Positions 36,898-46,324 of a stretch of DNA of 46,450 bases are shown one piece after another. Position 1 is the stretch's first letter. Each line of letters opens with the position of its first letter. The notes beneath the pieces are model-generated. The model ran no database searches and was not told where the DNA came from. It saw only the letters and a program-made list of their open reading frames with translations. The position numbers were made by a program, and so were the translations under genes. The stretch is from contig JAKSNN010000001.1 in assembly GCA_024399755.1 (NCBI GenBank), positions 1-46,450 of the forward strand, in the 5' to 3' direction. Origin of the DNA: Paludibacteraceae bacterium (GTDB lineage: Bacteria; Bacteroidota; Bacteroidia; Bacteroidales; Paludibacteraceae).

Positions 36898-39207
36898 TTA
36901 AATCTTCTCTAATTTGGCAAAGGTGAGCAGTAGTGTCTTATTGCCTACCTTGTCGAAACGAATCTCAATCTTGTCGTTGCCGTTGCTCTCGTCGTGCCAC
37001 ACGCGTAATATGGTTCCTTCGCCAAATACTTTATGCCTAACGCGCTCATTTGCTGCGAATTGCGAATCTGTAGGCATCTCTGTTGAAGCGTTTCTAACGG
37101 GATTGGCTTTGGCTTGTTCGGCTTGGATATGCGATTGTGTGAGGGTGTCGAGAGGTGTGAAACGGGGCATGCGGGGAGGCGCAGCAAAACCCCATTGTTG
37201 AGAGGGTGCGGAGCGGAAACTCGGCTGCGAAGAAGCCTCGTATTGCTTGATATATTGGCGGTCGAGGTCGTTCAGGAAACGCGACGGGGAGGAGAAATCC
37301 AAACTGCCGTTCTTGAATCTGGACTTCGCAAAACTGATGTAGCAACGTACCATGGCGCGTGTGATGGCGACATAGAGCAGACGTCGTTCTTCCTCAATCT
37401 CTGTGGGACGAACGCAATACTGCGAGGGAAACAGGTTCTCTTCCATGCCTGCGATGAAAACGCTCTCAAATTCCAGTCCTTTGGCTGCATGTACGGTCAT
37501 TAGTGTAACGCGCTCGGTATGGTCTTCCGTGTGCTCGTCTTGGTCGGTCAGCAGCGATACCTCGGATAGAAAATCCGTAATCGGCGTGAAACTGACGCCC
37601 TCTTGCATTCTGCCATCTACAAACTCGTGTATGGCGGATAACAGTTCGTCAAGGTTCTCTTTTCGGTCGATGCCTTCTTGCGATTGGTCAAGGAAGGCTG
37701 CGGTCATGATGCCGGATTCCCTCAGTACGCGTTCTGCAAATTCGTAGGCGTCGGTTGTGTCGATAGCCTCTTGGAAATGTTGTATGATAGTCGCAAAATT
37801 GCGCAGTTTGGTGAGGGTGGAAGCGTTTACGGTGAGGGCATTCTCATCAGGTTGGTTGATTACTTCCATCATGCTTATGCCGTGGGTGGTAGCGCATTCC
37901 GATACTTTCTTGAGTGTCGTGTCGCCGATGCCGCGTGCAGGGAAATTGATGACGCGCATCAGGGCTTCCGTATCTTTCGGGTTGGCTGCCAAGCGGAAAT
38001 ACGAGATAGCGTCTTTGATTTCTTTGCGTTGATAGAAACTGGTGCCGCCGTAGATGCGGTAGGGGATATTTCGGCTCCGCAGTTCGTTTTCCAATACGCG
38101 CGATTGGGCATTGGTGCGGTAGAGTACGGCAATCTCGTTGTAGCCGGTCTTGCGCAGGCGGTGTTCCTCGCTGATGAGTGAGGCTATGCCTTCTGCCTCG
38201 GCTCTGTCGGAGGCGTAGGCGCGAAGCGAAAGGGTATCGCCCACCTCTTTCTCGGAATATACGTCTTTGTGAATCTGGTTTTCGTTGTGGCGGATTAGCG
38301 AATTGGCTGCATTCACAATCGTTTGTGTTGAGCGGTAGTTGCGCTCCAGTTTGAATAGTCGGGCGTTGTGGTACTCGCGTTGGAAATGCAGGATATTGCG
38401 TATGTCTGCTCCGCGGAACGAATAGATAGATTGTGCATCGTCGCCCACTACGCAGATATGGTTTTGCGGCTCGGCAAGGCGTTTCACGAGACAATACTGC
38501 ACGTAGTTGGTGTCCTGGTACTCATCTACGAGTACGTATTGGAAGAGGTCTTGGTAGTAGGCAGCCGCTTCTGCGTTGTCTCTAAGTAGCCGGCAGGTAT
38601 TCAGTAGCAGGTCGTCAAAATCCATCGCATTGGCTGCCTGCAACCGTAGTTCGTAGCGTCGATATACTTCCGCCATGTCGTACATTCTGTCGAATCGGTC
38701 ACGTTTTTGCAGGTCGTTGTTGGCGGCGTAGTCGGAGGGTGACATAAAGGCGTTTTTGGCTGCGGAAATTTTTGAGAGCACGTTGCCGAGTTTGTATATC
38801 TTTTCGTCCAGTTGCATCTCTTTCAGTATCTGTTTGGCAGCGGCTTTCGAATCGGAAGTGTCGTAGATGGAGAAATCGCGTGTGAAGCCTAAATGTTCGG
38901 CTTCGTGGCGGAGGATACGGGCGCAGATGGAGTGAAAAGTGCCCATCCAGAGGTATCGGGCTGTTTCCTCACCGACGAGTTTGCCGATGCGTTCTTTCAT
39001 TTCGCGTGCGGCTTTGTTGGTAAAGGTGAGGGCGAGGATATGATTAGCGGGGATACCTTGTTGCAGAAGCCATGCAATCTTAAAGGTCAGTACGCGGGTT
39101 TTCCCCGAACCGGCACCGGCAATCACGAGTTGTGGACCGTCGTTGTAAGTGACGGCATCGCGTTGTGAGGGATTGAGAAGGTCTAATAAAGTAGGCATAG
39201 TCTGCAT
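36898..39207 (-). CDS. UvrD/PcrA-type ATP-dependent DNA helicase
   Basis: Walker A AGAGSGKTRVLT, motif II LVDEYQDTN and a C-terminal Tudor-like tail. The ORF-track start at 39222 is TTG inside the -7 box, so the ATG at 39207 (or 39198) is preferred. Confidence 0.9.
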   Translation of the reverse strand: MQTMPTLLDLLNPSQRDAVTYNDGPQLVIAGAGSGKTRVLTFKIAWLLQQGIPANHILALTFTNKAAREMKERIGKLVGEETARYLWMGTFHSICARILRHEAEHLGFTRDFSIYDTSDSKAAAKQILKEMQLDEKIYKLGNVLSKISAAKNAFMSPSDYAANNDLQKRDRFDRMYDMAEVYRRYELRLQAANAMDFDDLLLNTCRLLRDNAEAAAYYQDLFQYVLVDEYQDTNYVQYCLVKRLAEPQNHICVVGDDAQSIYSFRGADIRNILHFQREYHNARLFKLERNYRSTQTIVNAANSLIRHNENQIHKDVYSEKEVGDTLSLRAYASDRAEAEGIASLISEEHRLRKTGYNEIAVLYRTNAQSRVLENELRSRNIPYRIYGGTSFYQRKEIKDAISYFRLAANPKDTEALMRVINFPARGIGDTTLKKVSECATTHGISMMEVINQPDENALTVNASTLTKLRNFATIIQHFQEAIDTTDAYEFAERVLRESGIMTAAFLDQSQEGIDRKENLDELLSAIHEFVDGRMQEGVSFTPITDFLSEVSLLTDQDEHTEDHTERVTLMTVHAAKGLEFESVFIAGMEENLFPSQYCVRPTEIEEERRLLYVAITRAMVRCYISFAKSRFKNGSLDFSSPSRFLNDLDRQYIKQYEASSQPSFRSAPSQQWGFAAPPRMPRFTPLDTLTQSHIQAEQAKANPVRNASTEMPTDSQFAANERVRHKVFGEGTILRVWHDESNGNDKIEIRFDKVGNKTLLLTFAKLEKI

Positions 39208-39219
39208 AGATTCGGAGTG

Positions 39220-39251
39220 CAAAAGTACTGCTTTTTTCTCGAATATGCAAA
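39220..39251 (-). promoter_or_regulatory. Bacteroidota-type promoter for the helicase
   Basis: The plus strand has CAAAAGTA at 39220-39227 and CAAA at 39248-39251 with a 20-nt spacer. Confidence 0.65.
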
Positions 39252-39310
39252 TTACAACCCATAAATTACAAATTACAAATCACAAATTACAAATCAACAA
39301 CACAAATTAA
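39248..39310. repeat. About 9 x 7-bp tandem repeat CAAAT(T/C)A between divergent promoters
   Basis: Units begin at 39248 every 7 nt. It is the reverse-complement family of the 27079-27127 repeat. Confidence 0.85.
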
Positions 39311-39351: not shown

Positions 39352-39393
39352 TAGTCCAAATGGTGAGTGTCATTTCCAAAATATCAAACCAGC

Positions 39394-40212
39394 ATGCTTA
39401 ATGTCTCAATCGTCCTTTATCGTTCGGATATGGCGCAGGTGAATGCTCTGTGTCAGACGTTATTGCAGGCGGCTTCGGTGCGTTCTATTTACCTGATTGA
39501 CAATTCTCCGGTTGCGGCAACAGGCTTCCCTTCTGACTCGCGTGTGGTGTATCGTTGGAACGGGGGCAACAACCTCGGTTATGGCAGAGCCAATAATATC
39601 GCCATTCGTGAGAGTATCTACGATAAGGTGCCTTTTCATTTGGTTATCAATTCGGATATTGAGGTATCTGCGTCCGACTTGGATTATTTGCACGGATTTA
39701 TGCAGCATAACCCGAAGGTGGGCAGTTTGATGCCGCGGGTGGTAGGTGCGGATGGTCATTTGCAATATCTTTGCAAACTCTTGCCTACGCCGTGGGACGT
39801 GTTTGCCCGCCGTTTCTTGCCAAGAAGGTGGACGGAGCGTCGTAATGCGCATTATGAGTTACGGGCATCGGGGTATGATAAGATGATGAATGTGCCGTAT
39901 TTGAGCGGTTGTTTTATGTTGCTTCGTACGGAGGCTGTGTTGCAGGCGAGGTTGTTTGATGAGCGTTATTTCATGTATCCGGAGGATATTGACCTGACTC
40001 GCACGTTGCATCGTGACTGGTTGACGCTTTATGTGCCGGATGTGACGATAGTGCATCGTCATGCGCAAGCCTCGTATCATAGTTGTCGGATGCTTTGGGT
40101 ACATATAGTCAATATGTGCCGGTATTTCAATAAGTGGGGTTGGTTCTTTGATTCCGAGCGCACACTCATGAATCAACTCGCAAATTTACAGATAGAATAT
40201 CGAACCAACTAA
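39394..40212 (+). CDS. Family 2 glycosyltransferase (rhamnosyltransferase-like)
   Basis: MLNVSIVLYRSD..., IYLIDNSP and YPEDIDL. The ATG at 39394 is preferred over the GTG at 39367. The stop codon lies inside the first bases of repeat module B. Confidence 0.8.
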   Translation: MLNVSIVLYRSDMAQVNALCQTLLQAASVRSIYLIDNSPVAATGFPSDSRVVYRWNGGNNLGYGRANNIAIRESIYDKVPFHLVINSDIEVSASDLDYLHGFMQHNPKVGSLMPRVVGADGHLQYLCKLLPTPWDVFARRFLPRRWTERRNAHYELRASGYDKMMNVPYLSGCFMLLRTEAVLQARLFDERYFMYPEDIDLTRTLHRDWLTLYVPDVTIVHRHAQASYHSCRMLWVHIVNMCRYFNKWGWFFDSERTLMNQLANLQIEYRTN

Positions 40213-40329
40213 CGGAGCACTAACGGAGCACTAACGGAGCACCAACGGAGCACTCCGATACTTGACCGATACTTTGCCGATACTTGACTGACACTTTTTC
40301 GAAATGTTTTTTGCATCTTTTGCATCATT
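40203..40329 (+). promoter_or_regulatory. Upstream repeat module, copy B (4 x AACGGAGCAC(T/C) + 3 x CCGATACTTnn + TTGCATC motifs)
   Basis: 11-bp units at 40211-40254 and 40255-40287. It carries a 9-nt insertion (40286-40294) and a TTTTGCATC duplication relative to copy A. The module end lies 67 nt upstream of the -7 box. Confidence 0.75.
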
Positions 40330-40494: not shown

Positions 40495-40833
40495 AAAAAA
40501 CATTTATTTAATTATGAAAAAATTCTTTTTGGCACTGATGGCTGTAGCCGCCATCGCAATCGCAGGATGTAACAAGTCGATAAACGACCCGGAACCTCCA
40601 GAAAATAAGGAAGAAGTGCGAGGAATTTATCCCCCTTCTGAAGATTCTACGGTCGTTATAGTTAATGATGAAGTTCCTGATGACGGGAAGTAATCGTGCC
40701 CTTGTGGCTAAGAAATAACAAAGTTAAACAATAATCAAAAAAACATTTATTTAATTATGAAAAAATTCTTTTTGGCACTGATGGCTGTAGCCGCCATCGC
40801 AATCGCAGGATGTAACAAGTCGATAAACGACCC
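40495..40833 (+). repeat. Tandem duplication: identical 96-nt blocks at 40495-40590 and 40738-40833 (243-bp offset)
   Basis: Each block is 19 nt of leader plus 77 nt encoding MKKFFLALMAVAAIAIAGCNKSINDP. The sequences are unrelated after the block. Confidence 0.9.
40514..40693 (+). CDS. Small acidic Pro-rich lipoprotein (59 aa), copy 1
   Basis: Not in the ORF track (<60 aa). ATG 40514 to TAA 40691-40693: MKKFFLALMAVAAIAIAGCNKSINDPEPPENKEEVRGIYPPSEDSTVVIVNDEVPDDGK. Lipobox IAGC. Confidence 0.6.
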   Translation: MKKFFLALMAVAAIAIAGCNKSINDPEPPENKEEVRGIYPPSEDSTVVIVNDEVPDDGK

Positions 40834-40972
40834 TGTAGTAATTGACGACCTTGGAGCACCTGATAATATTATACCTCCTACGGATACCGATGGTGCAAAT
40901 CAGAATAGATGGGGTCTCGCTCCAGAGAGAATTCCTCTGCCAGTTACCTATACTGAAAACGACGAAGAATAA
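40757..40972 (+). CDS. Small acidic Pro-rich lipoprotein (71 aa), copy 2
   Basis: Same signal peptide and first 7 mature residues as copy 1, then the unrelated tail ...VVIDDLGAPDNIIPPTDTDGANQNRWGLAPERIPLPVTYTENDEE. Confidence 0.65.
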   Translation: MKKFFLALMAVAAIAIAGCNKSINDPVVIDDLGAPDNIIPPTDTDGANQNRWGLAPERIPLPVTYTENDEE

Positions 40973-40996
40973 TTTGCAAAAATTATGCGAAATAAC

Positions 40997-41022
40997 AAAA
41001 ATCGTCCTTCGGGGCGATTTTT
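40997..41022 (+). terminator. Rho-independent terminator/attenuator hairpin with a TTCG loop
   Basis: AAAAATCGTCC-TTCG-GGGCGATTTTT. The T-tract ends 11 nt before the next ATG (41034). Confidence 0.7.
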
Positions 41023-41033
41023 GTCTATTTGGT

Positions 41034-41981
41034 ATGAAGCGTGGGTGTTGGATATATCTGCTTTTCCTGTTCGTTGGAGTCAGTTGTGAGTCGCGAGTGA
41101 TTCCAATGCAACAAACTGCGACACGTCAGATTGTGATGTTTTCTGCCGTCAACGGACTGGGAGACCACGGCTATGTTGATTTGATTCTTTTTGGGGCGGA
41201 ACATGTCTATCTGAATTTGCCGAAGGATGTGCGTATGCTGTATTGCAACCCTACCACTTTTGAGGAAGCCGAACAGGCGGCGGATTACTATTCGCACGAA
41301 GGAGCAGCAGCATACGACAGCACGTTGATTGTTTTGGCAGGGTCGGATTATAAGCCCCTCGCAGAGAAATATATCCATGATTCCACGCTTAACCCAAATG
41401 TGGATATCCTTGTTTTTGAGGTGGACGAACTGCCGCAGGGCTATAACTCTGACCATGTAGCGGCGTTCTCCGTAGATATGTATTGGGGCAGTTACAATGC
41501 CGGTGTGAGTGTGGCTCAAATGGGTTTCCAAGCCCCGTTGATTTGGTTGGCTCGTGATGATGATTACATCTTGCAACTGGCTCGGGACGGCTTCTCTGAC
41601 GGCTATTATTCGATAACAAATGTGCACCCTGACACGGCGATGCTCAGTAACGACTGGCACGGCTACGGTATGCCCGACGTTACCTACCGGCAAATGGAGG
41701 AGAAAAGCAAGAAATATGATTTCATTTATCCCGTCATGGGCGGTTCTAATATGGGTATTTATCGCTATTTGCGTGAGCATTCGGATGGACCTAAAGTGGC
41801 AGGAATGGATGTGGATCAAAGCCAATATGCCTCTAATGTGATTGGCAGTTTGGTCAAACACATGGACCTGTTGGTAGAGAAGTATCTGAATAATTGGCTA
41901 AACCATATACCTTGGCAACGATATGAGAAAATCGAGGCGAATAGCGGTTATATTGAGTGGGTGCTTACTGGTGCTGAGTAG
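41034..41981 (+). CDS. BMP-family (PnrA/Med-like, type-1 binding fold) probable lipoprotein
   Basis: MKRGCWIYLLFLFVGVSC..., with the BMP-like motifs VNGLGDHGYVD and AGMDVDQSQ. The ATG at 41034 is preferred because the ORF-track N-terminus overlaps the small gene and the terminator. Confidence 0.6.
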   Translation: MKRGCWIYLLFLFVGVSCESRVIPMQQTATRQIVMFSAVNGLGDHGYVDLILFGAEHVYLNLPKDVRMLYCNPTTFEEAEQAADYYSHEGAAAYDSTLIVLAGSDYKPLAEKYIHDSTLNPNVDILVFEVDELPQGYNSDHVAAFSVDMYWGSYNAGVSVAQMGFQAPLIWLARDDDYILQLARDGFSDGYYSITNVHPDTAMLSNDWHGYGMPDVTYRQMEEKSKKYDFIYPVMGGSNMGIYRYLREHSDGPKVAGMDVDQSQYASNVIGSLVKHMDLLVEKYLNNWLNHIPWQRYEKIEANSGYIEWVLTGAE

Positions 41982-44046
41982 TTGGCTCCTGACATCATGC
42001 GAACGCGAGGAGCATTATTGTTCTGTTAGTGACCTCAGCGTGCGTAAGGTGGCTGTAGTCTTACCCTTTGAAAACGGTTTGCGTGAGCAATGGGAACAGT
42101 GCCTGAACCTCTGCAATGCCAATTTGCAGACGGCTTTTTGTTATGCCGGTATGGGGGTGAAATTGCAGTTTGAGTGGTATGACGAATCGACAGAGGACTT
42201 ATCTGCTTTAGGACAAAAACTCTTGGCGCGCAAGGATATAGTGGCTGTGATTGGAGGTCACCACTCGTCGTCAGCGATGCAGTTGGCATCGGTGTTGTGC
42301 AAAGGGGGAAAAAACCTTTTTACTTTGGGGACAGCCGGGCAATTGACGCGGGCATATTCGGCAACAGGCAATCTATGGGTAATGACCGAAACGGATGTTA
42401 CCGAGTGTGAGGTGCTGCTTAGTAAAGCCATACAATATGGAGCCAAATCAGTTGCATTGTTGGTCAACGGCGCAGATGTGTACGGTCAAACTTTCTTGGA
42501 CTGGTACGCGTTCCAAGCGACAGAGTTAGGACTGCAAAACAAGGGTACCTATTCCTATGACGGTAGTGAGGCACAGATTGCGCAGCAGACCAAAGCGGCT
42601 TTAGCGTCTGGCGCAGACTTTGTGTTGTGTGCTTCCAGTTCGGTGGAGGAACTGAAAACGGTGCTGAGTACGAAGCAATCCACACTGCATAACAACCGTA
42701 TGCTAATGGCAGAATCGGGGTTTGCGGGTAATGCTATCAGCGAGTTAGGTTCGTTGATGGAGGGTGTTGAGGGAGTGTGTTATGGTGCCGATCCTGAATC
42801 GGGATTTGATATAGCCTATCAGGCACGGTTCAATCGTTTGCCCTGCTTGGGCGAAGCGCAAGTATATGATGCAGCCATGCTGATTGCCTTTGCTTCGTAT
42901 GTGCAGATGCTCAATGAAGACCTCACATTCAAAAATGCCATGCGTCAATTGGTAGATGGTCGCGAACAGGGCAAGAGCAGTTGGCGGAGCGAAGACATGG
43001 TTTGGCTTGCGTCTATGCTGGCGAAAGGTGCGCATCCGGATATTAGTGGCGCTTCCGGTTCGTTGGACTTTGACGCAAGGGCTTATACCAACGTTCTGCA
43101 CTCGGTCTATTATAACTACTTGGTCTATCAACAAAAGTACATCTTTTTGGACTACAATACCACGGACGGCTCACGCCGAACCGACCCTACATTGGCATCA
43201 TGGAACTGGAAAAAGTCGCAAAAGCAGGATATCTCGTATGAGGGAGAGGAGCGTGTCTATCCTCCTTTGGATAAACGTTGGGCGTTGCTGGTAGCAGCCT
43301 CAAAGGGGTGGGAAAATTATCGCCATCAGGTAGATGTGCTTAATATCTACCAGATTCTCAAGAAACACGGTTATGACGATGACCATATCGTTGTTATCAT
43401 GGAGGATGACTTGGCGAAGAATGCGAATAATCCTGAACAGGGTGTTTTGTACTCGCGAATGGATGGCGTTAATGTCTATCAGAATGTGCAGGTGGATTAT
43501 CACCCCTCCCAATTGACCCCAAAAGATATTCCTGAGATTCTGTTAGGACATGCTTCGGAACGTTTACCGCATGTGTTGCGTTCGGATTCGGATGATAATG
43601 TATTCTTTTTCTGGTCGGGTCATGGTTCACCGGGTAAGATGTGCTGGCTCGATACATGGGAGGGAATTAAAAAAGACGATTTGGAAAAATGCCTCGCTAA
43701 ATTAGAGCAATCGGGGAATTACCGCAAACTGATTGGTTGCTTCGAGACATGCTATTCCGGCGGAGTAGCGGAAGCGGCAGATAACCATAATGGCATGCTG
43801 TTCTTCACGGCAGCCAATGCCAATGAGACATCTAAAGCGGACGAGTATAATTACAACTGGGATGTATGGATGAGTAATCGTTTTACCGCCACCTTGCAGG
43901 ACTGTATGATCAATTCCCCTACGCAGACGTTTGGCGAACTGTATAACCAATTATTTCTATCTACTGTTGCCTCGCACGTGTGTGTATTTGGTCATAAGGG
44001 GTTTGGCAGCCTGTACGAATCTAATCTGGGAGAAATTCTTAAATAG
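41923..44046 (+). CDS. Lipoprotein fusion: type-1 periplasmic binding domain + peptidase C13 (legumain-like)
   Basis: Signal/lipobox ...WLLTSC. The N-terminal half is LivK/ANF-receptor-like (VAVVLPFENG, IVAVIGGHHSSSAMQ). The C-terminal half has GWENYRHQ, a catalytic-type His in WSGHGSPG (43621-43623) and a Cys in FETCYSGG (43750-43752). Confidence 0.8.
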   Translation: MRKSRRIAVILSGCLLVLSSWLLTSCEREEHYCSVSDLSVRKVAVVLPFENGLREQWEQCLNLCNANLQTAFCYAGMGVKLQFEWYDESTEDLSALGQKLLARKDIVAVIGGHHSSSAMQLASVLCKGGKNLFTLGTAGQLTRAYSATGNLWVMTETDVTECEVLLSKAIQYGAKSVALLVNGADVYGQTFLDWYAFQATELGLQNKGTYSYDGSEAQIAQQTKAALASGADFVLCASSSVEELKTVLSTKQSTLHNNRMLMAESGFAGNAISELGSLMEGVEGVCYGADPESGFDIAYQARFNRLPCLGEAQVYDAAMLIAFASYVQMLNEDLTFKNAMRQLVDGREQGKSSWRSEDMVWLASMLAKGAHPDISGASGSLDFDARAYTNVLHSVYYNYLVYQQKYIFLDYNTTDGSRRTDPTLASWNWKKSQKQDISYEGEERVYPPLDKRWALLVAASKGWENYRHQVDVLNIYQILKKHGYDDDHIVVIMEDDLAKNANNPEQGVLYSRMDGVNVYQNVQVDYHPSQLTPKDIPEILLGHASERLPHVLRSDSDDNVFFFWSGHGSPGKMCWLDTWEGIKKDDLEKCLAKLEQSGNYRKLIGCFETCYSGGVAEAADNHNGMLFFTAANANETSKADEYNYNWDVWMSNRFTATLQDCMINSPTQTFGELYNQLFLSTVASHVCVFGHKGFGSLYESNLGEILK

Positions 44047-44090
44047 TTTCGATGCAAGTTCCATACACCATTAGAAAGGTGATATACAAG

Positions 44091-45107
44091 ATGACAAAGT
44101 TTCGATATATGTTTCTGTGCGCGATTCTTTTGCATGGATTCTTGTCCTGCGACCGGGACGACGATCCGACAAGACGTATTGCCGAAACCGGTGACGCTAC
44201 AGACATTACGGCATTTACCGCTAAAATTTCCGGTTATTGCAATCAAAAGAATGTTGCAGGACTATCTGTAACCTATGGAATAGAATATACCAATACAGAT
44301 CTTACAAGAAACGCTATCGTTCTGAATGCCTCTGAAATGGACGAGAAGGGTCGTTTTTCGGTTGATATTGAAAATCTGAATCCGGGAACAGAATATTTCT
44401 ACCGTACATTTGTCTTTTACAACAGGGCTTATTCATTCGGAAATGTGGAGAGTTTTACGACATTGGCGCATCCTGAGCCGGAAAAGGTGGACTTGGGTGT
44501 GGGCGTCAAGTGGGCTTCGTTCAACATAAGTGCACCTGCTCCTGCTGATTATGGGAAATATTACTCATGGGGAGAGATTAGAACCAAGTCCTTCTATGCA
44601 TGGGAGTCCTACCTGTGGAGTGCAGACGGAACGGAATCCAACATAACAAAATACAATTCTGCGGATAACAAAAACCGCCTTACCTCGGACGATGATGTTG
44701 CTACACACGAACTTGGCGGTTCATGGCGTATGCCTACCGCTAAAGAGTTTGATAAACTGGTTGCCGGTTGTTATTGGCAATGGTTTGAGAACTACAAAAA
44801 TTCAGGGATAAAAGGCTACGTGGTATTTAAGGCAAAAAATGATGGAGACCGGGGAAAAAGGAACTCTGAAACTATTTCTGCATCTTATTCGCCGGACAAG
44901 GATGTCCACATCTTCCTTCCGGCTGCCGGATATGCTTCAAAAGATGTATTTAGTGATATTGGAAGCAACGGCAATTATTGGACATCATCTCTTTCCCCTT
45001 CGACATCAAGCAGCGCTTATTACATCTATTTTGATTCCGAAAACATAGGGGTAGGTGAGTGCGAGAAACGCTATTATGGACAGTCCGTCCGTCCTGTCTC
45101 TGATTGA
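44091..45107 (+). CDS. Lipoprotein: Fn3-like domain + FISUMP/DUF1566-like domain, paralogue 1
   Basis: Lipobox HGFLSC followed by DRDDD. Fn3-like NLNPGTEYFYRTFV, then GVKWASFNI...YYSWGE...WRMPTAKEF...FLPAAGY...GQSVRPVSD. The ATG at 44091 is preferred. Confidence 0.7.
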   Translation: MTKFRYMFLCAILLHGFLSCDRDDDPTRRIAETGDATDITAFTAKISGYCNQKNVAGLSVTYGIEYTNTDLTRNAIVLNASEMDEKGRFSVDIENLNPGTEYFYRTFVFYNRAYSFGNVESFTTLAHPEPEKVDLGVGVKWASFNISAPAPADYGKYYSWGEIRTKSFYAWESYLWSADGTESNITKYNSADNKNRLTSDDDVATHELGGSWRMPTAKEFDKLVAGCYWQWFENYKNSGIKGYVVFKAKNDGDRGKRNSETISASYSPDKDVHIFLPAAGYASKDVFSDIGSNGNYWTSSLSPSTSSSAYYIYFDSENIGVGECEKRYYGQSVRPVSD

Positions 45108-45131
45108 CAAATCGAAAAACCATCAATCAAT

Positions 45132-46226
45132 ATGAAAAAAGTTATTTTATTAATGTGTCTTGTTGTCACGTTGGTTTCGTGTGAAAAATCCGATTTAGGA
45201 AACTCTGACATTGCCGAAACAGGTGTAGTCGTAGAGTTGGGCGCTTTTTCTGCCAAAATCCAAGGTGTTTGCCGACAAAAGCCGGAGAAGGCTTTGTCTG
45301 TCATCTATGGCATTGAATATTCTGAGAACGATCTCAACACCAATGCGACCGACGTTGAGGCAACACAAATAAGTGCTGATGGCAAATTTGACGTTTGCAT
45401 TGATGGACTGACGGCAAATACGTCATACTACTATCGTGCTTATGTGTTATTCAACAAAGTCTATTATTTCGGTGATATCAAGACTTTTGTCACGTCTTCA
45501 CACCCGCAGCCGGAAAAGGTGGATTTAGGTGTGGGCGTCAAATGGGCGTCATGCAACATAAGTGCCTCTTCACCGGAGGAAGTTGGAAAATATTATGCGT
45601 GGGGTGAGACTAAGCCCAAATCGTTTTATAGTTGGGGTACATACGTTTGGTGTAAAGATGGACAGGAACTGCAACTGACGAAATATGTTCCTGCTTCTGC
45701 TCCGGAATACTGGTTTGGCGATGGTCCCGTTGACAACAAACTCGTGCTTGATCCTGAAGATGATGTCGCCCGTAAGGAACTCGGCGATTCGTGGCGTATG
45801 CCTACTATTGAAGAATTTGGCGATTTGGTATCGGAATGTTTCTGGCAATGGTGTACCGACTACAAAGGTTCCGGCGTCCGTGGATATATTGTTTTCAAGG
45901 CAAAGACTCCTGAGGATAGGGGGAAGAGACAATCTCCGGAATATACGGAAGATATAGTGACGGGGGACTATTCCGTAGATAATGATGTCCACATCTTTCT
46001 TCCCGCTGCTGGGTTCCGTTGGGACGATGTTACGATGGGGGACAAAGGAGATGTGGTTTTGGGGTACTACAGATCGTCTTCTCTTCAGGCAGTAGGTATT
46101 CCCAATTATGCCAATGGTACTCCCAATTATGCAGTTGATATGTGTTTCAGTGTCTTCTATACAGATACTGCCGATTATTACGAGCGTTGTTTCGCAATGC
46201 CCATTCGGGCTGTAGCGGATTATTGA
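45132..46226 (+). CDS. Lipoprotein: Fn3-like domain + FISUMP/DUF1566-like domain, paralogue 2
   Basis: Lipobox TLVSC followed by EKSD. Same architecture as paralogue 1, with a divergent and longer C-terminal third. Confidence 0.7.
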   Translation: MKKVILLMCLVVTLVSCEKSDLGNSDIAETGVVVELGAFSAKIQGVCRQKPEKALSVIYGIEYSENDLNTNATDVEATQISADGKFDVCIDGLTANTSYYYRAYVLFNKVYYFGDIKTFVTSSHPQPEKVDLGVGVKWASCNISASSPEEVGKYYAWGETKPKSFYSWGTYVWCKDGQELQLTKYVPASAPEYWFGDGPVDNKLVLDPEDDVARKELGDSWRMPTIEEFGDLVSECFWQWCTDYKGSGVRGYIVFKAKTPEDRGKRQSPEYTEDIVTGDYSVDNDVHIFLPAAGFRWDDVTMGDKGDVVLGYYRSSSLQAVGIPNYANGTPNYAVDMCFSVFYTDTADYYERCFAMPIRAVADY

Positions 46227-46267
46227 TGTGTGCCACTTCGAACCCTCATAGTCCCCTCATAGATTTT

Positions 46268-46302
46268 AATCACCAATCACAAATAACAAATCACAAATCA
46301 AA
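46268..46302. repeat. 5 x 7-bp tandem repeat AATCACA-like
   Basis: Units at 46268, 46275, 46282, 46289 and 46296, the same family as 39248-39310. Confidence 0.85.
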
Positions 46303-46324
46303 AAAGCGCTTTCGGGCGCTTTTC
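46301..46324 (+). terminator. Rho-independent terminator closing the lipoprotein cluster
   Basis: AAAAAGCGCT-TTCG-GGCGCTTTT. Confidence 0.75.

Follow-up and report, generated by a model that had tools for sequence, protein, structure and literature searches.

The 46,450-nucleotide stretch analysed here (positions 1 to 46,450 of contig JAKSNN010000001.1, assembly GCA_024399755.1; hereafter the window) comes from a Paludibacteraceae bacterium and carries on its forward strand, at 41923-44046, an open reading frame (ORF) that encodes a protein of 707 residues. The initial annotation, made from the letters of the sequence, had delimited this ORF exactly and had read its product as a lipoprotein in which a type-1 ligand-binding fold is fused to a legumain-type C13 peptidase. 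Pfam, searches of the PDB, comparison of predicted folds and residue conservation agree on this assignment. The protein begins with a signal peptide (MRKSRR followed by a hydrophobic core) that ends in the lipobox L-T-S-C26 (41923-42000), both read directly from the sequence, and the lipid-attachment Cys is followed by the acidic stretch E-R-E-E-H (42001-42015). A type-I periplasmic-binding domain of the LivK-like, Venus-flytrap kind (residues ~38-415, 42034-43167), recognised by Pfam, profile and Foldseek searches, is then joined by an interdomain linker of low model confidence and near-invariant sequence (residues 416-450, 43168-43272) to a legumain-type C13 peptidase domain (residues 451-696, 43273-44010), recognised by Pfam, PDB and Foldseek searches. 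All of these features lie on the forward strand, as does a second lipoprotein gene of the Bmp/PnrA family, which overlaps the fusion gene at its 5' end.

In Pfam, Peptidase_C13 (PF01650) matched fusion residues 452-694 over profile positions 1-247 of 258 (E 1e-52, 179.7 bits against a cutoff of 22.8), and Peripla_BP_6 matched residues 77-322 (E 1.9e-20, 74.3 bits against a cutoff of 31.7). Among the hidden Markov models that had been suggested as checks with the initial annotation, these two exceeded their cutoffs, whereas ANF_receptor stayed below the Pfam threshold; a caspase match was likewise sub-threshold, and no NCBIfam model covers the protein. The full-length AlphaFold2 model, built on 102 homologues, has a mean predicted local distance difference test score (pLDDT) of 90.9 and a predicted template modelling score (pTM) of 0.85, and is uncertain at residues 420-445 only. 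Conservation was counted in three samples: a close set of 102 full-length homologues (46-91% identity to the window protein), a divergent set of 146 representatives for the C13 residues (33-49% identity), and a divergent set of 124 members for the flytrap pocket (C13-domain identity to the query 33-49%). We conclude that the fusion is a lipoprotein that carries a type-1, LivK-like binding domain and a C13 legumain domain. With moderate confidence, we take it to be an active, lipid-anchored, legumain-type endopeptidase of the outer membrane; its flytrap domain, together with the co-translated Bmp partner, would serve to stabilise, position or regulate it.

The C13 domain and its catalytic residues

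When the PDB was searched by sequence, human legumain was the top match (residues 451-696, E 5.5e-36, 127 bits, ~29-30% identity), followed at lower ranks by hamster and mouse legumains, plant AEP/PAL enzymes and GPI8. All C13 chains retrieved by this search were eukaryotic and no bacterial C13 structure was found among them. Using Foldseek, the C13 half of the predicted model could be superimposed on human legumain (7fqj, 5lua, 4aw9) with a target template modelling (TM) score of 0.88-0.92 and a root-mean-square deviation of 1.7-2.1 Å over ~265 columns.

Residues of the window protein were mapped to human legumain with the printed phmmer alignment to 5lua. The segment N465-Y-R467-H468 (43315-43326) corresponds to human Asn42, Arg44 and His45. 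The catalytic His567 (43621-43623) corresponds to His148 and is preceded by Gly566, where the human enzyme has Asp147. In E608-T-C610-Y611 (43744-43755), Glu608 aligns with the S1 residue Glu187, Cys610 with the catalytic Cys189 and Tyr611 with the position of Glu190, while Asn652 (43876-43878) occupies the position of the S1-pocket residue Asp231 (chain index 206). The three legumain motifs quoted in the initial annotation are therefore all present and map as it had claimed. Asn42 of legumain orients the catalytic His, and Arg44, His45, Glu187 and Asp231 make up its zwitterionic S1 pocket.

N465, R467, H468, H567, E608, C610 and N652 are invariant in all 102 close homologues. Among the 146 divergent representatives, Cys610 and His567 are each retained in 143, Arg467 in 144, His468 in 129, Glu608 in 138 (with Asp in 8) and Asn465 in 122 (with Asp in 13). 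The His/Cys dyad is conserved in orthologues and the C-terminal half falls within clan CD/C13, as the initial annotation had expected. Since the dyad and the equivalents of Asn42, Arg44, His45 and Glu187 are kept in 122-144 of the 146 representatives, a pseudo-enzyme is unlikely. That the C13 half is an inactive pseudo-protease used for binding only is indeed the least probable of the explanations considered here. Nothing specific speaks for it apart from the loss of His or of Cys in three of the 146 members each and a His-to-Tyr change in one metagenomic protein (P0223, described below), whereas dyad and supporting residues alike show no variation in the close set and are kept in ~98% of the divergent representatives, and conservation within the protein is highest in the C13 half (mean top-residue frequency 0.51 vs 0.40 in the binding half). 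As judged from these residue counts, the catalytic apparatus is intact and under selection.

Residues that tune legumain activity differ in the fusion family. The regulatory 'dyad +' residues of legumain are Asn42, Glu190, Ser215 and Asp147, of which Glu190, strongly conserved among legumains, restrains Cys189 like a brake (PMC9604545); Asp147 of the human enzyme forms a succinimide linked to ligase activity (PMC8491156). In the divergent representatives, the Glu190 position (residue 611) is Tyr in 94, His in 24, Phe in 23 and Glu in none, and the Asp147 position (residue 566) is Gly in 140; the Ser215 position is occupied by Thr, Ser or Asn. Residue 652, at the position of Asp231, is Asn in 87 of the 146 and Asp in 58.

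A second departure from legumain concerns the LSAM prodomain. In prolegumain, this C-terminal domain covers the active site and confers stability at neutral pH, and the isolated human AEP domain is not stable at that pH without it (PMC8491156). The fusion has no such prodomain, because the protein ends 11 residues past the catalytic domain, and its matches to prolegumain cover the catalytic domain alone. Compared by net charge and isoelectric point for a loss of the acidic 'electrostatic stability switch', the C13 domain and human AEP were both acidic (isoelectric points 5.2 and 5.7, respectively; family median 4.9). By profile match, fold and dyad, the C-terminal half is a member of family C13. 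The missing LSAM prodomain and the different tuning residues set it apart from legumains in the narrow sense, and it is not GPI8 either.

Flytrap pocket, linker and overlapping partner gene

A profile of the flytrap domain retrieved 3td9, a leucine-binding protein of the LivK/LivJ type, from the PDB (E 3e-11), and the model of this domain alone (pLDDT 84.7) matched the same structure in Foldseek (E 8e-18, TM 0.79). Further Foldseek matches of this model included the Leu-bound structures 4q6b and 4n0q, aromatic-acid-binding proteins of Rhodopseudomonas, and the flytraps of mGluR and GABA-B. Family residues S115, T137 and Y187 align with Ser79, Thr102 and Tyr150 of E. coli LivJ, which are named ligand contacts (PMC6983066). 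In the 124 divergent members, G111 is kept in 94%, S115 in 65%, T/S137 in 92%, R143 in 97%, D158 in 94%, Y187 in 83%, D264 in 78%, F295 in 98%, Y315 in 90% and D316 in 99%; residue 264 is Glu in the window copy and Asp as the family residue. The spacing of S115-T137-Y187-D264 (22, 50 and 77 residues) matches that of Ser79-Thr102-Tyr150-Glu226 in LivJ (23, 48 and 76), where Glu226 is presumably a ligand-pocket position as well. Residues of this kind would be lost from a decayed scaffold; the flytrap pocket therefore appears to be functional, and with a conserved pocket, ligand gating stays plausible. By analogy, an amino acid or another small carboxylate would be the likeliest class of ligand, since this matches the ligands of the closest structures.

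NCBI and IMG call most members of the family 'ABC transporter substrate-binding protein' (P0004, P0008, P0014, P0045, P0058, P0286). These names, together with the LivK-like fold and its conserved pocket, are what favours the idea that the fusion is the substrate-binding component of a branched-chain amino-acid ATP-binding cassette (ABC) importer with an extra domain. We nevertheless consider it very improbable. LivH/LivM-type permease genes were found neither in the 46-kb window nor in any of the 83 loci of our gene neighbourhood sample, and ABC ATPase genes occur in only two of these loci, several kb from the module. Moreover, the surface-export signal of the family would direct this lipoprotein to a side of the outer membrane on which it could not serve an importer of the inner membrane, and a protease whose catalytic residues are intact makes up its largest and best-conserved part. 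The N-terminal half thus fails the functional test for an ABC-transport component; the database name, which hides the protease domain, is unsupported because no permease genes lie nearby.

The linker between the two domains combines low model confidence with near-invariant residues, namely R419, T423-L-A425, W427-N428-W429-K430, Q435 and Y446-P447. In the 102 homologues, T423, W427 and Y446 are kept in all, R419 and Q435 in 101 and N428 in 100. Its pLDDT is 54-84 in the full-length model vs 34-43 when the periplasmic-binding half is modelled alone. This suggests that the segment packs on the C13 domain, since its confidence is higher only when that domain is present in the model. One could speculate that the conserved Asn428, lying in a flexible segment, is a candidate self-cleavage or active-site-docking element.

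It is possible, if on the whole unlikely, that the flytrap is instead a built-in prodomain substitute acting as a chaperone, stabiliser or inhibitory cap, with activation by self-cleavage of the linker, for example after Asn428, no ligand gating, and the Bmp protein as a structural partner or a substrate. The absence of LSAM, which the isolated human AEP domain needs at neutral pH (PMC8491156), would fit such a role, as would the pTM of the full-length model, which implies a fixed packing of the domains, and the retention of Asn428 in the flexible, near-invariant linker of a presumptive Asn-specific enzyme. A pure scaffold, however, would need no near-invariant polar residues at canonical ligand positions, and these are kept among members whose C13 domains are 33-49% identical. 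Asp421, in the most disordered stretch of the linker, was considered as an obligatory autocleavage site and rejected because the residue is not conserved, which also counts against this explanation.

The initial annotation had overlooked the conserved partner of the fusion, a gene for a 315-residue lipoprotein (41034-41981, forward strand; ATG at 41034, lipobox V-S-C18) whose 3' end overlaps the fusion gene by 59 nucleotides (nt). A Bmp homologue lies immediately upstream of the fusion, on the same strand, in 78 of the 83 loci; of the five loci without one, two have too little upstream DNA to tell. In 63 of 67 loci, the Bmp ORF and the fusion ORF share 4-77 nt, and overlapping ORFs are the usual signature of co-translated partners. 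The window copy of the partner scores 23.4 bits with the Pfam model Bmp (PF02608) vs a cutoff of 24.1, while 42 of 42 orthologues match (best E 9e-28). Searched against the PDB, a profile of the orthologues retrieved Lbp (7x0r, 4e-15), TmpC/PnrA (2fqw, 5e-10) and BmpD (6shu), and also BmpA. On the basis of these profile matches, the partner is a member of the Bmp/PnrA family. Its ligand would likely be related to that of PnrA yet different, because the base-contacting Asp27-Ser28 of PnrA aligns with Ser-Pro.

The two genes form a cassette. DNA homology between the window and its closest relatives extends from ~40991 to ~44050, which comprises both cassette genes and nothing else, and the 5' edge of this conserved cassette is occupied by a hairpin (40995-41024, forward strand), an inverted repeat with a 13-nt stem and a 4-nt loop situated between the second of two small-lipoprotein genes and the Bmp ATG. 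A metagenomic protein of 424 residues (P0223), in which a Bmp-like N-terminus is joined to fusion residues ~347-636, was considered as a Rosetta-stone fusion of Bmp and C13 and rejected. It is a decayed chimera in which the catalytic His is replaced by Tyr, and is probably a deletion-derived pseudogene or an assembly artefact.

The lipid anchor itself is conserved, Cys26 of the lipobox being invariant in the 102 homologues. In Bacteroides, an export signal defined by experiment, S(D/E)3 or CS(D/E)2, directs lipoproteins to the cell surface and into outer-membrane vesicles (PMC6222051). The consensus of the fusion family behind the Cys, S-D-(D/E)-(D/E), agrees with this signal, and at least two acidic residues occur at positions +2 to +6 in 73 of the 102 homologues (baseline of Asp plus Glu, 13%). 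Many Bmp partners carry the same S(D/E)-type signal. Surface exposure of the fusion family is likely on this evidence. For the window copy, the initial annotation was right about the lipobox; the EREE stretch that it had read as consistent with the export signal is acidic without being a canonical S(D/E)3.

From these features we infer the following arrangement. The fusion would be a catalytically competent cysteine endopeptidase, predicted from its sequence to cleave most likely after Asn and/or Asp. Instead of a C-terminal LSAM, it would rely on an N-terminal flytrap joined to the catalytic domain by the strongly conserved linker. The Bmp/PnrA-family lipoprotein, a second ligand-binding protein, would be co-translated with it, and both proteins would form one extracytoplasmic unit on the outer membrane, which in most family members may be surface-exposed or loaded into outer-membrane vesicles. 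The flytrap, whose ligand is probably an amino acid or another carboxylate, would stabilise, position or regulate the protease, and so would the Bmp partner, whose ligand probably contains ribose.

Several observations weigh against parts of this arrangement. The hhalign match of the flytrap domain to LivJ is weak overall (probability 11%), for which reason the mapping of the pocket rests on local motif alignment and spacing. In this clade, Asn takes the place of the S1 residue Asp231, so that the P1 specificity may not be that of classical legumain. Three loci (L060, L070 and L074) have no detectable Bmp gene despite enough upstream DNA, so that the Bmp partner is not absolutely required. Finally, the export signals of the window are weak, the fusion having C-E-R-E-E (no Ser, and Arg at +3) and the partner C-E-S-R-V. 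Surface exposure in the window organism is uncertain for this reason, and its Bmp-fusion pair may face the periplasm.

Two further explanations would give the cassette a role beyond proteolysis or a more elaborate control. Quite unlikely in our view, the pair would be a two-sensor surface machine, in which amino-acid-like and nucleoside- or sugar-like ligands switch a prodomain-less legumain, or in which the bound ligand is the amine acceptor for a transamidase that remodels surface proteins; if true, bacteria would possess an equivalent of GPI transamidase or sortase that is built on a C13 scaffold. We consider it improbable that the enzyme is mainly a transpeptidase of the sortase or GPI8 kind, joining a protein cleaved after Asn/Asp to an amine acceptor presented by the flytrap or by Bmp; a sortase-like transamidase had been put forward in the initial annotation, next to a ligand-gated protease. 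Family C13 does include GPI8 and the plant peptide ligases, which were retrieved at E 1e-22 to 1e-33, and the plant peptide asparaginyl ligases show that the C13 scaffold can favour ligation. A membrane anchor and an obligatory-looking small-molecule-binding partner would suit such a reaction too, and near-neutral pH and pH-stable scaffolds are known to favour ligation by enzymes of the legumain type (PMC8491156). Against this, the domain is closer to legumain (127 bits) than to GPI8 (89 bits), the Asp147 whose succinimide is implicated in ligation by human legumain is Gly here, and no acceptor, substrate family or conserved third gene was identified at the examined loci. A legumain-type endopeptidase served by its flytrap and its Bmp partner remains the reading that we prefer.

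Family distribution and surroundings of the cassette

A word-indexed search retrieved 416 relatives of the fusion, of which the best 120 are almost all ~700 residues long, with both Pfam domains present. When the C13 half alone was used in an exhaustive search, 2535 relatives were obtained, 238 of them at E ≤ 1e-30. The same architecture, with C13 starting after residue 380, was present in 123 of the best 150 cluster representatives at 50% identity, so that the fusion accounts for at least 123 such clusters; the shorter C13 matches are mostly fragments, with a few standalone lipoprotein C13 enzymes. In a scan of one genome per species we detected 579 fusion loci. The best 80 all belong to Bacteroidales and are distributed among Paludibacteraceae (75-87% identity), Bacteroidaceae, Muribaculaceae, Prevotellaceae, Rikenellaceae, Tannerella and Porphyromonadaceae. 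Cultured carriers include Phocaeicola vulgatus ATCC 8482, Bacteroides cellulosilyticus DSM 14838 and Phocaeicola sartorii DSM 21941, and the fusion is also found in assemblies labelled Bacteroides xylanisolvens and Alistipes ihumii.

A gut version of the fusion occurs as an identical protein in at least 12 taxa and more than 1000 contigs, and its cluster at 90% identity has 2313 members. The gut forms of both proteins (P0286 and P0271) are recorded as 'MULTISPECIES' and are identical across genera that include Odoribacter, Phocaeicola and Bacteroides (L046, L048, L049). The operon of P. vulgatus is flanked by genes for a divergent tyrosine recombinase, a DDE transposase and TIR/SLOG/Thoeris-like and restriction-modification proteins, and RteC and DUF6047 are encoded near the module in Parabacteroides loci. 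Identity across genera and flanking genes of mobile-element type suggest a recent horizontal spread of the gut version on an integrative element. Searches for plasmid or phage copies of the module gave no matches. An invertible, phase-variable promoter was sought near the P. vulgatus tyrosine recombinase and in the window, and only short inverted repeats at chance level were detected.

The survey of the architecture that had been suggested with the initial annotation revealed a large family that already bears names in the databases and is no oddity of this genome, yet is unstudied. Besides the transporter name discussed above, its members are called 'Legumain', 'C13 family peptidase' and 'GPI8/ABC-type branched-chain amino acid transport'. 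The bare observation of the architecture is not new, since it is already visible in public annotation. The initial annotation had also known of no described function for such a protein, and in agreement with this our full-text literature searches found no study or published characterisation of the fusion family. New here are the partner gene, the lack of a prodomain and of the Glu190 brake, and a conserved binding pocket with no ABC permease nearby; together with the prevalence of the family, these features make it worth pursuing.

Outside the cassette, the surroundings are variable. At other loci its neighbours are variable lipoproteins of ~180 residues (30 loci), ~314 residues or ~750 residues, MACPF proteins and TPR-AraC regulators. 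MACPF-domain lipoproteins of ~760 residues (cluster c12) lie directly upstream of the Bmp-fusion pair at some Muribaculaceae/Bacteroides loci (six in all, among them L025, L045 and L066). At Parabacteroides loci L002 and L003 (5043-6353), a gene for a C11 (clostripain-like) peptidase lies ~1.6 kb upstream of the fusion in the same cluster, which thereby encodes two clan CD peptidases; this arrangement was seen in only 5 of the 83 loci.

In the window, two small lipoproteins of 59 residues (40514-40693) and 71 residues (40757-40972) precede the cassette. The initial annotation had put them forward as substrates on which to assay the protease. They were rejected as conserved partners or substrates, being present only in the closest relatives and absent outside them, and the FISUMP-like lipoproteins downstream (44052-46226) were rejected in the same role and on the same ground. 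A perfect 96-nt direct repeat (40495-40590 and 40738-40833) spans the upstream region and part of the signal peptide of both small-lipoprotein genes, while the mature parts of the two proteins differ. In the close relatives L005 and L006, the same signal-peptide cassette of 50-60 nt recurs two to three times around the module, also on the downstream side of the fusion, which points to a variable family of small lipoproteins that share one 5' cassette. The two FISUMP-like lipoproteins of the window are tandem paralogues of 351 and 364 residues (44052-45107 and 45132-46226), found next to the module in the nearest relatives only, with sub-threshold matches to FISUMP (TIGR02145), Lcl_C and the fibronectin-like Pur_ac_phosph_N.

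Further upstream, the window encodes a UvrD/PcrA-like helicase on the reverse strand (36898-39222), assigned by reading the translation, and a family-2 glycosyltransferase on the forward strand (39367-40212; Pfam Glyco_tranf_2_3). Neither gene is syntenic in L005, the closest relative with a long contig (82% protein identity), so that the cassette stands in a different chromosomal context even at this level of identity. Between the glycosyltransferase and small-lipoprotein genes lie adjacent 11-nt tandem repeats, ACTAACGGAGC four times and CCGATACTTGA three to four times (40208-40251 and 40255-40298), with a period close to one helical turn. A/T-rich repeat arrays of AATTACAAATYACA, spaced 14 nt from start to start, are found at 39250-39307 and 46261-46304. 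These arrays are ~7 kb apart and bracket the glycosyltransferase, the small lipoproteins, Bmp, the fusion and both FISUMP-like lipoproteins. They could mark the boundaries of an island, or be regulatory or terminator elements present in more than one copy.

Comparison with known systems

To our knowledge, legumains have been studied almost entirely in eukaryotes, in the context of antigen processing, of cancer and of plant peptide ligases for biotechnology. The present family means that gut Bacteroidales carry a very common legumain. We propose that it solves the prodomain and stability problem unlike the eukaryotic legumains do, by means of a fused flytrap and of a Bmp partner translated together with it. 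Were the enzyme active at neutral pH, the host-microbe interface would harbour an unrecognised source of Asn/Asp cleavage, and the family would offer a natural protease wired to small-molecule sensors as well as a candidate neutral-pH legumain scaffold for protein engineering. The family also exposes a systematic annotation error, in which a protease is labelled as a transporter component.

Mammalian legumain (MEROPS C13; 5lua, 7fqj, 4fgu) has the same catalytic domain as the fusion, with the His-Gly and Glu-x-Cys elements of the dyad and the equivalents of Asn42, Arg44, His45 and Glu187. Unlike it, the fusion has no LSAM prodomain or activation peptide and possesses an N-terminal lipid anchor and a flytrap instead; its Glu190 brake is replaced by Tyr, Phe or His, Asp147 by Gly and, in this clade, Asp231 by Asn. 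Mammalian legumain is lysosomal, whereas the fusion is predicted to be a bacterial outer-membrane lipoprotein.

With GPI8/PIGK (7w72_K, 7wld_K), which gave its name to some of the IMG entries, the fusion shares the C13 fold, membrane tethering, the lack of a legumain-type prodomain and the presence of a partner, which in the fusion is a putative subunit. It differs in its lower score to this enzyme than to legumain and in being anchored by an N-terminal lipid and not by the C-terminal helix of GPI8, and its partner is a Bmp-family binding protein in place of PIG-T/GPAA1. The plant ligases and AEPs (butelase-1, 6dhi; OaAEP1, 5h0i; VyPAL2, 6idv) have the same C13 core (E 1e-29 to 1e-33). They are vacuolar and keep a C-terminal cap domain that the fusion lacks, and their identity to the fusion, ~27%, is too low for a reliable mapping of the LAD1, LAD2 and gatekeeper positions. 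Among the clan CD cysteine peptidases of the same gut Bacteroidales, the C11 enzymes (PmC11, fragipain; PMC4850288) have Arg/Lys specificity and no fused binding domain, whereas the fusion is a C13 enzyme of predicted Asn/Asp specificity.

The binding half resembles LivJ and LivK in its two-lobed type-I fold (closest to 3td9) and in the Ser, Thr and Tyr contacts of lobe 1, whose spacing matches, but the fusion has no ABC importer partner genes. As in mGluR and the natriuretic-peptide receptors, a flytrap is covalently fused to an effector domain. Unlike in class-C G-protein-coupled receptors and ANF receptors, the effector is a protease, a pairing for which we found no characterised precedent. 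The partner, for its part, resembles TmpC/PnrA of T. pallidum (2fqw) and BmpD of B. burgdorferi (6shu), of whose ligand-contact motifs (PMC7093131) it keeps those on the ribose side, namely AGG..G, G-x-D-x-DQ, the Lys of 'KhiD' and the stacking aromatic residue. It is unlike PnrA in having Ser-Pro at Asp27-Ser28, in lacking ABC transporter genes nearby and in being paired with a protease. We conclude that this Bacteroidales lipoprotein, which combines a flytrap with a C13 peptidase and is accompanied by a Bmp partner, represents a known enzyme family in a variant not yet characterised.

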